64,000 nt of DNA from Escherichia coli (GTDB taxonomy: Bacteria; Pseudomonadota; Gammaproteobacteria; Enterobacterales; Enterobacteriaceae). The notes under the pieces were generated by a model that searched no databases, had not been told where the DNA came from, and saw nothing but the letters and a program-made list of their open reading frames with translations. Within the stretch, counting starts at the first letter, position 1; every line of letters begins with the position of its first letter. The stretch lies in the NCBI RefSeq assembly GCF_041886205.1, contig NZ_CP169029.1; one strand, given 5' to 3'. The position numbers and the translations under genes are program-made. Below are positions 25,369 through 28,775 of the stretch, piece by piece.

Positions 25369-25692
25369 TTAGAGAAAGACAGGGAAGGCGGAATGATGGC
25401 ACTGATATGACAAAGTGAATTCCGTATTCAAACATAAGGAACCCGCAAAAAGGCTACAGTTGCCTACTGGCTGACCAAAGGGGACCGCGTGGGTATAGCC
25501 TTCCTGCTGGCATGCGCGATCGGCGATCCCGCGACTGACATAACGATCGGTATGGGCATGCTGCAAAAAAGCCTGGTCATAAACTAACCGTACAATACCT
25601 GTTGCCGCGTCAACTTTGCTCACATGGGCTTGGCGAGTAACCGTACACCCCGCCAGCGTTATTAATGAAAGAGTCAGAATCAGAAGTCTCAT
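25369..25692 (-). CDS. yecR: lipoprotein YecR
   Basis: 107-aa ORF with lipobox (LITLAGC). Confidence 0.8.
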   Translation of the reverse strand: MRLLILTLSLITLAGCTVTRQAHVSKVDAATGIVRLVYDQAFLQHAHTDRYVSRGIADRACQQEGYTHAVPFGQPVGNCSLFAGSLCLNTEFTLSYQCHHSAFPVFL

Positions 25693-25954
25693 GGTCCAGC
25701 CAGAAGAGTAAGAGAAAGCACTATTTTACGCGTTACAGTGCTGCGACAATGGCCGGAAAAGACGCCTGGCAGGCGCTATTTCTTGCCATCTGTAGGTGTC
25801 AGAAATAGGGGGGCTGTTTTTTGATTATCATTTTCATAACATTAAAGGGGTATTTATGTGATTTGCATCACATAAAGATTGATTTTTGTGATGGTTGTCA
25901 TATTATAAGCGCAAAGACAATAACACCTGTATAACAAATAGTCGGAGTGCCGCG

Positions 25955-26041
25955 ATGAAACTGCGCAAAATCCTGAAAAGTATGTTCAATAACTATTGCA
26001 AGACGTTCAAAGACGTACCGCCAGGCAATATGTTCCGATAA
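25955..26041 (+). CDS. azuC: small protein AzuC (28 aa)
   Basis: ATG at 25955 encodes MKLRKILKSMFNNYCKTFKDVPPGNMFR then TAA; below the 60-aa ORF-track cutoff; correct position between yecR and yecJ. Confidence 0.7.
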   Translation: MKLRKILKSMFNNYCKTFKDVPPGNMFR

Positions 26042-26155
26042 CAAAAAACCTGCTCCGGCAGGTTTTTTTGTGTCCTGATGACGGTGGATGTGACTATCGC
26101 TGAAGATGTGAAGCCGCTACTATAACGGCTTTCAAAATGCTATCAGGAGTTTACG

Positions 26156-26407
26156 ATGTCCCAGCCGCTGAATGCCGATCAGGAACTGGTTTCTGATGTG
26201 GTTGCTTGCCAGTTGGTTATCAAACAAATTCTGGATGTTCTCGATGTAATCGCGCCCGTTGAAGTTCGTGAAAAAATGTCCAGTCAGCTGAAGAATATCG
26301 ACTTTACTAACCATCCCGCCGCCGCAGACCCGGTCACCATGCGGGCAATCCAAAAAGCCATCGCGCTTATTGAACTCAAGTTTACCCCACAGGGTGAATC
26401 CCATTAA
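26156..26407 (+). CDS. yecJ: uncharacterised protein YecJ
   Basis: 83-aa ORF; synteny. Confidence 0.8.
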
Positions 26408-26443
26408 AAAAACCGCTGCTTCAAACAGATGAGGCAGCGGTTT
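26406..26443. terminator. candidate bidirectional terminator between convergent yecJ and ftnB
   Basis: A tract, then CCGCTGCTTC/GAGGCAGCGG stem (one mismatch), then TTT. Confidence 0.5.
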
Positions 26444-26485
26444 CTCAAAACCTTCATCGGCGCAATGCATTAGCGCCGATGATGA

Positions 26486-26989
26486 TCAATGCAGCTGGTG
26501 TGACACGACATTCAGAACATGTTGGTCGGTCTGCACAGGGCACATACCCGCAAGTTTCGCACTGCGCACTTCATCAAGAATGGTTTGCAGCAACAGACCA
26601 TCATGCTGCTGTTCTTTTTCCAGATCGCGCAGGAAATTGACGGTTGAATCATCATTCAGTTCTTTCGCTTCATCGGCTAACTGTGCCAACGTACTAGAAC
26701 GTTGCTCGTATTCTTCCATCGTTTTTTGGAACAGTTCTTCCAGAGAGTTCAGTTTTTCACCGGGAACATCAATGGCTTTAACGATGGGGGTAGCGCCGAC
26801 ACTCTTCATAAAGTTAAACATGCGCATCATTTGGGTCACATTACTCTGTGCCTGGGCGCGAAGGAAAGTGGCGGTGCCGTTCAGACTCTGTTCAGAACAC
26901 CAGTTACTCAGGTGAAGGTAGAGATTGGATGCGTAAAACTCGCGGTTCATTTGAGAGTTGAGTTTGAGAAGCATTCCAGCGGTTGCCAT
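26486..26989 (-). CDS. ftnB: ferritin-like protein FtnB
   Basis: 167-aa ORF paralogous to FtnA. Confidence 0.88.
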
Positions 26990-27179
26990 ACCTAATATCC
27001 TTATATCCAGAAGTGGAGAGGTGCAAGATAAATCAAAACACCATAATTACTGTTTGCAGAATAATTCCTTTCTGCCGGTCCGAAATGTGATCGTGGAGTC
27101 AATTCTGACGATGATCTGAAATAAGAATAACGTCTGAACGGGTATAAGAAAATGCTTAAATCATCAAGTTTATATATTT

Positions 27180-27207
27180 TTACATTTCATTGATGAAATC
27201 AATGTAA
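27180..27207. repeat. 28-bp dyad-symmetric element in the ftnB-araF intergenic region
   Basis: TTACATT-N14-AATGTAA with perfect 7-bp arms; about 190 bp upstream of the ftnB start on the minus strand. Confidence 0.4.
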
Positions 27208-27785
27208 CTGCAATGAATTTTAATGATAGTGCTTTTTGTATCTTGTTGATATTAATCAATGAATTTGAATTCATGATGAAGTGATGATTTTATAAAACGT
27301 TTTTTCATTTTTGCGAGATGGCTCTCATTATACGTGTTCTGTTAATTAATGAGCACAGTGATAATTAATGACGAAATGAATGACGTGCATTTTCCACATC
27401 TTTGAGTTGCGGTTATTACACCATTTCAAAAACTCAACGCCAGGTAATGCGGCCTATTGACTGGTTAAAAAGAAGACATCCCGCATGGGTACCAAAGACA
27501 ACAAGGATTTCCAGGCTAATCTTATGGATTAATCTGCTGTGCATTCGACAATTTGTCTGACAAATTGGCTTTCCCTTATGTCTTTTCCCGCTAAATTTAT
27601 GCACGTTCTCACTGTAATTCTGCGATGTGATATTGCTCTCCTATGGAGAATTAATTTCTCGCTAAAACTATGTCAACACAGTCACTTATCTTTTAGTTAA
27701 AAGGTAATGCTTTGTTTTCCGATTAATTTAACGAATGTCATTCGTTTTTGCCCTACACAAAACGACACTAAAGCTGGAGAGAACC

Positions 27786-28775
27786 ATGCACAAATTTACT
27801 AAAGCCCTGGCAGCCATTGGTCTGGCAGCCGTTATGTCACAATCCGCTATGGCGGAGAACCTGAAGCTCGGTTTTCTGGTGAAGCAACCGGAAGAGCCGT
27901 GGTTCCAGACCGAATGGAAGTTTGCCGATAAAGCCGGGAAGGATTTAGGGTTTGAGGTTATTAAGATTGCCGTGCCGGATGGCGAAAAAACATTGAACGC
28001 GATCGACAGCCTGGCTGCCAGTGGCGCAAAAGGTTTCGTTATTTGTACTCCGGACCCCAAACTCGGCTCTGCCATCGTCGCGAAAGCGCGTGGCTACGAT
28101 ATGAAAGTCATTGCCGTGGATGACCAGTTTGTTAACGCCAAAGGTAAGCCAATGGATACCGTTCCGCTGGTGATGATGGCGGCGACTAAAATTGGCGAAC
28201 GTCAGGGCCAGGAACTGTATAAAGAGATGCAGAAACGTGGCTGGGATGTCAAAGAAAGCGCGGTGATGGCGATTACCGCCAACGAACTGGATACCGCCCG
28301 CCGCCGTACTACGGGATCTATGGATGCGCTGAAAGCGGCCGGATTCCCGGAAAAACAAATTTATCAGGTACCTACCAAATCTAACGACATCCCGGGGGCA
28401 TTTGACGCTGCCAACTCAATGCTGGTTCAACATCCGGAAGTTAAACATTGGCTGATCGTCGGTATGAACGACAGCACCGTGCTGGGCGGCGTACGCGCGA
28501 CGGAAGGTCAGGGCTTTAAAGCGGCCGATATCATCGGCATTGGCATTAACGGTGTGGATGCGGTGAGCGAACTGTCTAAAGCACAGGCAACCGGCTTCTA
28601 CGGTTCCCTGCTGCCAAGCCCGGACGTACATGGCTATAAATCCAGCGAAATGCTTTACAACTGGGTAGCAAAAGACGTTGAACCGCCAAAATTTACCGAA
28701 GTTACCGACGTGGTACTGATCACGCGTGACAACTTTAAAGAAGAACTGGAGAAAAAAGGTTTAGGCGGTAAGTAA
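27786..28775 (+). CDS. araF: L-arabinose-binding periplasmic protein AraF
   Basis: ORF 27735-28775; start at 27786 (MHKFTKALAAIGLAAVMSQSAMA signal) giving 329 aa. Confidence 0.93.
   Translation: MHKFTKALAAIGLAAVMSQSAMAENLKLGFLVKQPEEPWFQTEWKFADKAGKDLGFEVIKIAVPDGEKTLNAIDSLAASGAKGFVICTPDPKLGSAIVAKARGYDMKVIAVDDQFVNAKGKPMDTVPLVMMAATKIGERQGQELYKEMQKRGWDVKESAVMAITANELDTARRRTTGSMDALKAAGFPEKQIYQVPTKSNDIPGAFDAANSMLVQHPEVKHWLIVGMNDSTVLGGVRATEGQGFKAADIIGIGINGVDAVSELSKAQATGFYGSLLPSPDVHGYKSSEMLYNWVAKDVEPPKFTEVTDVVLITRDNFKEELEKKGLGGK

Follow-up and report, generated by a model that had tools for sequence, protein, structure and literature searches.

Does a perfect inverted repeat in the AT-rich DNA between ftnB and araF of Escherichia coli mark the site of a dimeric regulator, and which of the two genes would such a site serve? 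The repeat was picked out in an initial annotation of a stretch of 64 000 nucleotides of E. coli DNA (the window, in whose coordinates all positions below are given, prefixed with w where other coordinates stand nearby). The annotation took the symmetry to fit a dimeric regulator and considered the target unclear. The features at issue are as follows.

26990-27785: the ftnB–araF gap, 796 bp, 34.8% GC
26989: ATG of ftnB, minus strand
27787: ATG of araF, plus strand
27180-27207: the dyad TTACATT TCATTGATGAAATC AATGTAA, with perfect 7-bp inverted arms around a 14-bp spacer

The ftnB–araF gap

Of 5426 complete E. coli genomes, 5412 carry the 796-bp gap, and its sequence here matches that of K-12 at 100% identity. 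Its description as very AT-rich is borne out by the GC content measured here, which falls further, to 28.6%, in the stretch 27100-27400. When the MG1655 annotation is transferred onto the window, the gap is the longest unannotated one, as had been claimed; the runner-up, between flhD and uspC, measures ~779 bp because the strain lacks IS1H. The window strain is not MG1655: it differs by scattered SNPs, and by a 776-bp offset consistent with IS1H being absent upstream of flhD. Between about w26501 and w34500 the window is collinear with K-12 with zero offset, and for this segment, and only locally, the MG1655 (U00096.3) coordinate is 2013914 − w. The RefSeq annotation of MG1655, in which many small proteins and sRNAs are recent additions, places no features in the gap.

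Inverted repeats in the gap

The dyad is present as described, starting 191 bp upstream of the ftnB ATG and ending 580 bp upstream of the araF ATG, in agreement with the distances first given. Of dinucleotide-preserving shuffles of the gap, 78% contained one or more perfect 7-bp inverted repeats with spacers of up to 20 bp, and the dyad by itself is therefore not significant. The whole gap does hold an excess of such repeats, 13 where 2.1 are expected, which form 5 non-overlapping clusters (1.41 ± 1.14 in shuffles; shuffle fraction 0.009). Four perfect 7-bp inverted repeats overlap at 27180-27217, an arrangement absent from the initial annotation, and among the symmetries of this segment is one tighter than the reported dyad:

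27188-27204: the inner palindrome CATTGAT-GAA-ATCAATG

This inner palindrome is the sole predicted hairpin (−4.6 kcal/mol, folded as single-stranded DNA and compared with shuffles), and its z-score of −1.04 is not significant. A hairpin or cruciform role for the dyad segment was rejected, since its fold is not better than that of shuffled sequence. In the 64-kb window the dyad is unique at up to two mismatches.

A published CpxR box at the promoter-side arm

Among the sequence strings of the region searched in the literature, only one returned a match, a CpxR box that lies upstream of the ftnB promoter and on the same strand.

27183..27169, minus strand: CpxR box GTAAAAATATATAAA, a direct repeat GTAAA-N5-ATAAA (GTAAA-AATAT-ATAAA)
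27115, minus strand: ftnB +1 (A), derived from the T7/SP6 primers of Pourciau et al. (2019), ‘+1 to +152’

The string GTAAAAATATATAAA is given as the ftnB CpxR site in Table S1 of PMC9600279, which credits it to Yamamoto and Ishihama (2006); in Table S4 of PMC9600279 the site stands in the araF–ftnB gap at −180 from ftnB, and the identical string is cited elsewhere as a RegulonDB CpxR site (PMC5778461). Nine of its 10 half-site bases match the tandem GTAAA-N5-GTAAA. Scored with a leave-one-out PSSM built from the other 40 published sites, the box reaches 14.2 bits, a score that nothing else in the gap equals and that places it among the 8 sites with at least 12 bits on both strands of the 64 kb. 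Since +1 lies at 27115, the box is centred at −61, and the dyad extends from −65 to −92.

Box and dyad share little sequence. The left arm of the dyad (27180-27186) overlaps the upstream CpxR half-site, GTAAA, by 4 bp (27180-27183), and the second half-site (27169-27173) lies outside the dyad altogether. Read on the ftnB strand, this ftnB-proximal arm (AATGTAA) consists of the 5′ flank followed by the first four bases of the upstream half-site. The proposal of a dimeric-regulator site thus holds in one part, in that a transcription-factor site is present, and fails in the other, in that this site is the CpxR direct repeat sharing 4 bp with the dyad and not the dyad itself. Nor does the regulatory target have to be left unclear: through the published CpxR box it can be named as ftnB.

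Published Cpx-dependent effects on ftnB expression are modest, of 2- to 3-fold. Expression was down 2.2-fold in a cpxR deletion, up 2.05- to 3.24-fold on Cpx activation, and at 0.49 in a cpxR deletion carrying pnlpE. One CpxR ChIP-exo study lists the gene in the CpxR iModulon and in RegulonDB, but leaves it out of its own direct targets.

Could the whole dyad belong to an extended CpxR-P site? Extra dimers would then sit on a phase-shifted repeat (TCAAT..GTAAA, 27193..27179), on the inverted GTAAC of the right arm, or on both, and the dyad would reflect two oppositely oriented CpxR half-sites. GTAA does occur in both arms, the PSSM scores are 6.2 bits for a frame 10 bp further upstream and 4.5 bits for the plus-strand frame that ends in the GTAAC of the right arm, and the bases just upstream of the box (27184-27194) are kept across Escherichia beyond the needs of a 15-bp box. 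However, 187 positions in the window score at least 6 bits, so these scores are ordinary; the GTAAC of the right arm is not conserved; and 41 of the 41 tabulated CpxR sites are 15-bp direct repeats of the GTAAA-N5-GTAAA type. We consider an extended site very unlikely, and in what follows the CpxR box is the published 15-bp repeat.

Promoter and leader of ftnB

A simple sigma70 promoter scan of the region returned zero sites, and the promoter elements were therefore placed from the published +1 and from conservation.

26990..27114, minus strand: ftnB 5′ UTR, 125 nt after the +1 base (126 nt with +1)
27129..27124, minus strand: likely −10 hexamer TATTCT, from its position in the sequence and conservation of the GCTATGCTTATTT block
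27172..27145, minus strand: candidate sigmaE promoter TAAACTT-N16-TCTTA, 9 of 12 matches in a consensus scan

At the −10 position most relatives carry TATGCT. A sigma70 ChIP-seq peak has been mapped to 1984820 (U00096.2), which corresponds to w27118 (Myers et al., 2013); here and below, coordinates from that study were converted with a U00096.2 offset of +1976, which was checked against the coordinate of the FNR motif. For ftnB the literature describes a sigmaE promoter, a Cpx-dependent sigma70 promoter and a further start site that lies about 66 bp downstream, and it counts YecI among the members of the core sigmaE regulon. The sigmaE promoter of ftnB (yecI) is ascribed to Rhodius (2006) in a paper citing that work, and the candidate listed above was placed from sequence. 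Its −35 element overlaps the downstream CpxR half-site, and the conserved block TTAAGGATTTTCTTAT falls within 27145..27172.

The ftnB leader has been described as carrying four GGA motifs, three of them bound by CsrA (PMC6686035), and all four are present here (plus-strand TCC at 26998, 27006, 27066 and 27079). Two GATC sites were also observed, one at the ftnB start site (27113-27116) and one in a conserved TGATCAC block of the leader (27089-27092). A study of Dam methylation in Salmonella reportedly mentions ftnB.

The FNR box, the second palindrome and H-NS

Further from the promoter lie two more elements with dyad symmetry.

27246-27259: perfect FNR consensus TTGAT-ATTA-ATCAA (TTGATATTAATCAA), 10 of 10 bases, centred at −137.5 from ftnB +1
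27259-27274: second palindrome ATGAATT-TG-AATTCAT, abutting the FNR box

The FNR box stands 42 bp upstream of the inner palindrome and outside the dyad. The second palindrome, reported initially as a near-palindrome close to the dyad, has the sequence and position then given. As an ARG box it was rejected: it resembles a single core (TGAAT-TTGA-ATTCA), is not conserved, and has no partner 21 bp away when the sequence is inspected by eye. The inner palindrome was likewise rejected as an FNR site, as its TTGAT/ATCAA half-sites are of the FNR/CRP-like kind but are separated by 3 bp and not 4.

Table S6 of Myers et al. (2013) enters TTGATTAATATCAA at 1984679 (araF/ftnB), gives no FNR ChIP peak for it and adds the remark ‘H-NS ChIP-chip’; this motif, at 27246-27259 in the window, is classed as ‘silent’, that is, masked by H-NS. 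Binding of FNR unusually far upstream of E. coli ftnB is credited to Partridge (2007) where that work is cited by Troxell (2011). H-NS was among the proteins whose occupancy the initial annotation suggested looking for, and it is found: the H-NS ChIP-chip regions in Table S3 of Myers et al. (2013) run from w26108 to w27991 under anaerobic and from w22740 to w29696 under aerobic conditions, and so cover the entire gap. H-NS also appears to mask the adjacent perfect FNR box. In Salmonella, ftnB is bound and repressed by H-NS and activated by Fnr (Troxell, 2011).

These data raise the possibility that the palindromic, AT-rich block acts structurally, as a place of H-NS nucleation or bridging that silences ftnB and masks the FNR box until CpxR-P or other factors relieve the silencing. 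The low GC content of 27100-27400, the H-NS coverage of the whole gap, the silence of the FNR motif and the H-NS-dependent repression in Salmonella are all consistent with it. The dyad itself, however, does not fit the high-affinity motif of H-NS, to which the gap comes closest at 27725-27734 and at 27256-27265 (2 mismatches); H-NS binding needs no dyad symmetry; and the proposal accounts for the region but not for the specific 28 bp. We regard a structural role of this kind as unlikely.

Conservation between species

Upstream regions were aligned for 38 loci encoding relatives of FtnB in other species. Escherichia, Citrobacter, Salmonella, Silvania, Leclercia, Dryocola and Huaxiibacter retain four elements at fixed spacing: the 5′ UTR, the blocks GCTATGCTTATTT and TTAAGGATTTTCTTAT, and GTAAA-N5-NTAAA. 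The last of these ranks first by PSSM score in most of the 38 loci, and it keeps a fixed distance upstream of TTAAGGATTTTCTTAT in at least seven genera. Upstream of about 27195 the alignment collapses. Identities between six non-coli Escherichia and the window, to be read against an upstream background of 0.63-0.66, are as follows.

5′ UTR: 0.97
CpxR box: 0.92
Left arm of the dyad: 0.98
Spacer of the dyad: 0.80
Right arm of the dyad: 0.55, at background level
27208-27245: 0.63
FNR box: 0.74
Second palindrome: 0.47
27275-27400: 0.66

The promoter-side arm is conserved because it overlaps the published CpxR activator site. Loss of the arms in close relatives, with the flanking sequence retained, had been named at the outset as one part of what would refute the dyad, and on conservation this is borne out: the nearest relatives keep the CpxR box, the promoter and the 5′ UTR, but neither the right arm nor the second palindrome. 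The full dyad, with 7 of 7 paired bases and a 14-bp spacer, occurs only in E. coli; the arms pair at 6 of 7 positions in the closest Escherichia clade, at 5 of 7 in E. albertii, and at 5 or fewer, with unrelated spacings, in the rest. The inner palindrome is intact only in E. coli and the closest Escherichia clade, and is broken in E. albertii, E. whittamii and the cryptic clades.

A different symmetry was seen in other genera. The ftnB upstream regions of Citrobacter and Salmonella share an inverted repeat, (T/A)TGAAAC-N4-5-(A/G)TTTCA(A/T), which lies about 100 bp upstream of the CpxR box and which Escherichia lacks (L008-L026, L039). It may be the site of a different regulator in those genera.

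Variation within E. coli

The exact 51-mer 27160-27210, which contains the dyad, is present in 4854 of the 5426 complete genomes (89.5%), and the sequence from 27211 onward is much more polymorphic; the exact 49-mer 27232-27280 (the K-12 allele) occurs in only 2948 of 5426. The second palindrome varies within the species, a change that damages the FNR box (A27258G) is carried by 9 of 11 variant strains sampled, and the right arm is broken in one sampled strain (A27206G).

One variant falls in the CpxR box. A 2-bp TA deletion at 27171-27172, which turns (TA)3 into (TA)2, shortens the CpxR spacer from 5 to 3 bp and leaves a best CpxR score of 6.2 bits, in a different frame, against 14.2 bits for the intact box. 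This allele is found as an exact match in 362 of the 5426 genomes (about 7%), and constitutes a natural test of the CpxR box.

Insertions of IS1 were observed in the gap in three strains (L002, NZ_AP025214.2; L052, NZ_CP018970.1; L053, NZ_CP182145.1). One each lies in the ftnB 5′ UTR, at about 27192 inside the dyad, and at about 27238. The strain with the insertion inside the dyad has lost araFGH-otsBA.

Is the dyad, or the inner palindrome, then an operator of the E. coli lineage, at which a dimeric regulator modulates ftnB, for example by competing with CpxR-P? Several observations are in keeping with this: the perfect symmetry and the four repeats overlapping at 27180-27217, the enrichment of repeats in the gap, the constancy of the 51-mer next to polymorphic sequence, and a position (−65 to −92) beside an activator site that would be plausible for a co-regulator. 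Poor conservation elsewhere is compatible with a site specific to E. coli. Against these stand the 55% identity of the right arm in other Escherichia and the breakage of the inner palindrome in E. albertii, E. whittamii and the cryptic clades, together with the chance expectation of such a dyad, the lack of a second copy in 64 kb, the lack of a match to the Fur, FNR, CRP, TyrR, ArcA or GntR-type consensus and the lack, in the papers found, of a factor reported here. Such an operator seems to us quite unlikely. In a narrower form, the palindrome block 27184-27217, present in ~90% of E. coli genomes and absent from sister species, would be a recently evolved operator of a dimeric regulator, for which the chances appear slighter still. 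If it were true, activation of ftnB by CpxR, and possibly by FNR, would be gated by this factor in E. coli specifically. We continue to favour the conserved CpxR box as the functional element.

Other regulators, small RNAs and small proteins

Fur and IHF had also been suggested as occupants of the locus, and neither gains support. A Fur box was rejected, as no 19-mer with 6 or fewer mismatches exists anywhere in the gap. The gap holds nothing that fits the strict IHF consensus, and a published IHF-enriched region ends at 27027, short of the dyad. A conserved motif, AWATCAAYNAGWTA (27239-27253), was considered as IHF-like and set aside; in E. coli it corresponds to the ATCAA half of the FNR box with its flank. 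Consensus scans for CRP, TyrR, ArcA and GntR/PdhR-type sites gave no match covering the dyad; the closest TyrR-like sequence in the gap, mismatched at 3 of 12 positions, coincides with the CpxR box. A literature search for another factor at the dyad found no report.

The gap had further been judged large enough for an unannotated small RNA or small open reading frame, and the dyad would in that case belong to the promoter, the terminator or the structure of such a gene. At 796 bp the gap has the room, and it does contain short open reading frames, among them ones of 23 aa at 27213-27284 (plus strand) and of 34 aa at 27170-27274 (minus strand). Yet an Rfam scan of 25500-28200 returned only chance-level matches, the sole one overlapping the dyad being the eukaryotic mir-33 (E = 0.99); the segment folds no better than shuffles, as noted above; MG1655 has no RefSeq feature here; the middle of the gap is poorly conserved, being hypervariable both within E. 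coli and between Escherichia species; and sigma70 has a single published peak in the gap, at the ftnB promoter. A small RNA or small protein is extremely improbable as the explanation of the dyad.

The araF side of the gap

The block 27500-27690 is highly conserved out to Citrobacter, and the araF control region is therefore confined to the araF-proximal ~290 bp of the gap. Several elements were observed in this part of the sequence.

27549-27567: palindrome CAATTTGTC-T-GACAAATTG (core 27552-27564), stronger than the reported dyad
27502-27539 and 27577-27614, minus strand: AraC-like half-sites in two pairs, 21 bp apart within each pair
27626-27641 and 27671-27686: CRP-like sites TGTGATATTGCTCTCC and TGTCAACACAGTCACT
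27730-27750: hairpin AACGAATG-T-CATTCGTT in the leader of araF (40-57 nt before its ATG), with TTTTT following

The core of the palindrome, TTTGTC-N-GACAAA, is conserved in Escherichia and Citrobacter and sits between the two AraC-like tandem sites upstream of araF. It has the shape of a GntR-family operator (t.GT..AC.a), with 2 of 14 mismatches to the PdhR-type pattern. The leader hairpin overlaps an inverted repeat, TCGTTTT-N10-AAAACGA, and its arms vary between species with no obvious compensation.

A probable composite element and its significance

We consider it likely that the dyad is a composite, in which one arm is part of a known and conserved CpxR-P site that modestly activates ftnB, and the rest is lineage-specific symmetry in AT-rich DNA covered by H-NS. 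The mechanism that we propose draws on what is established for regulators of the OmpR/PhoB family. On envelope stress CpxA would phosphorylate CpxR, and a CpxR-P dimer would bind head-to-tail on the tandem repeat, whose centre lies at −61 relative to the ftnB start at 27115, and would assist RNA polymerase at this weak promoter. Lineage-specific sequence in the AT-rich upstream DNA would make up the remainder: the distal arm (27201-27207), the inner palindromes and the second palindrome. The identity, position and conservation of the box, the start site, the occupancy by H-NS and sigma70 and the Cpx dependence of ftnB come from the present analysis or from published data, whereas both the geometry of activation and the lack of function in the distal arm are things that we infer. 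Weighing against the composite reading are the conservation of 27184-27194 just beyond the box, the excess of inverted repeats in the gap, the low polymorphism of the 51-mer that holds the dyad, and the absence of ftnB from the ChIP-exo direct targets.

The functional element beneath the finding, the ftnB CpxR box, is already in RegulonDB and the literature, and the same is true of the FNR motif and of the H-NS coverage. Since the right arm is a match confined to E. coli in AT-rich, H-NS-coated DNA, the finding is an ordinary one. The lesson is that perfect 7-bp symmetry in the AT-rich promoter DNA of enterobacteria is to be expected by chance; here it misled the initial annotation both on the architecture of the site (an inverted instead of a direct repeat) and on its extent. 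Two by-products would be worth a small follow-up: the deletion in the CpxR spacer in ~7% of genomes, and the deeply conserved TTTGTC-N-GACAAA upstream of araF.

Comparison with known systems

The dyad brings several well-known sites to mind. The TyrR box, TGTAAA-N6-TTTACA, has the words TGTAA and TTACA in common with it, but in the dyad the order of the arms is reversed (TTTACA...TGTAAC), and they stand 16 bp apart. The FNR site, TTGAT-N4-ATCAA, shares its half-sites with the inner palindrome, whose spacing fails.

At the level of the locus, the ftnA promoter offers a parallel, as it too belongs to a gene of the ferritin family, with AT-rich, H-NS-bound upstream DNA and distal activator sites. 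Fur reportedly antagonizes H-NS silencing at the ftnA promoter. The ftnB–araF gap differs in holding no Fur box. Salmonella ftnB likewise has no predicted Fur site, and an indirect effect of Fur through hns has been proposed there (Troxell, 2011).

A further comparison is with the canonical CpxR boxes, such as those of cpxP (GTAAAACAACGTAAA) and yccA (GTAAAGATGGGTAAA), whose GTAAA-N5-GTAAA architecture the ftnB box shares, differing from them in its second half-site, ATAAA, and in a spacer made up entirely of A and T. The CpxR box published for ftnB (yecI) is the same DNA as 27183..27169 of the window, organized as a direct repeat with a 5-bp spacer where a 28-bp inverted repeat had been noted.
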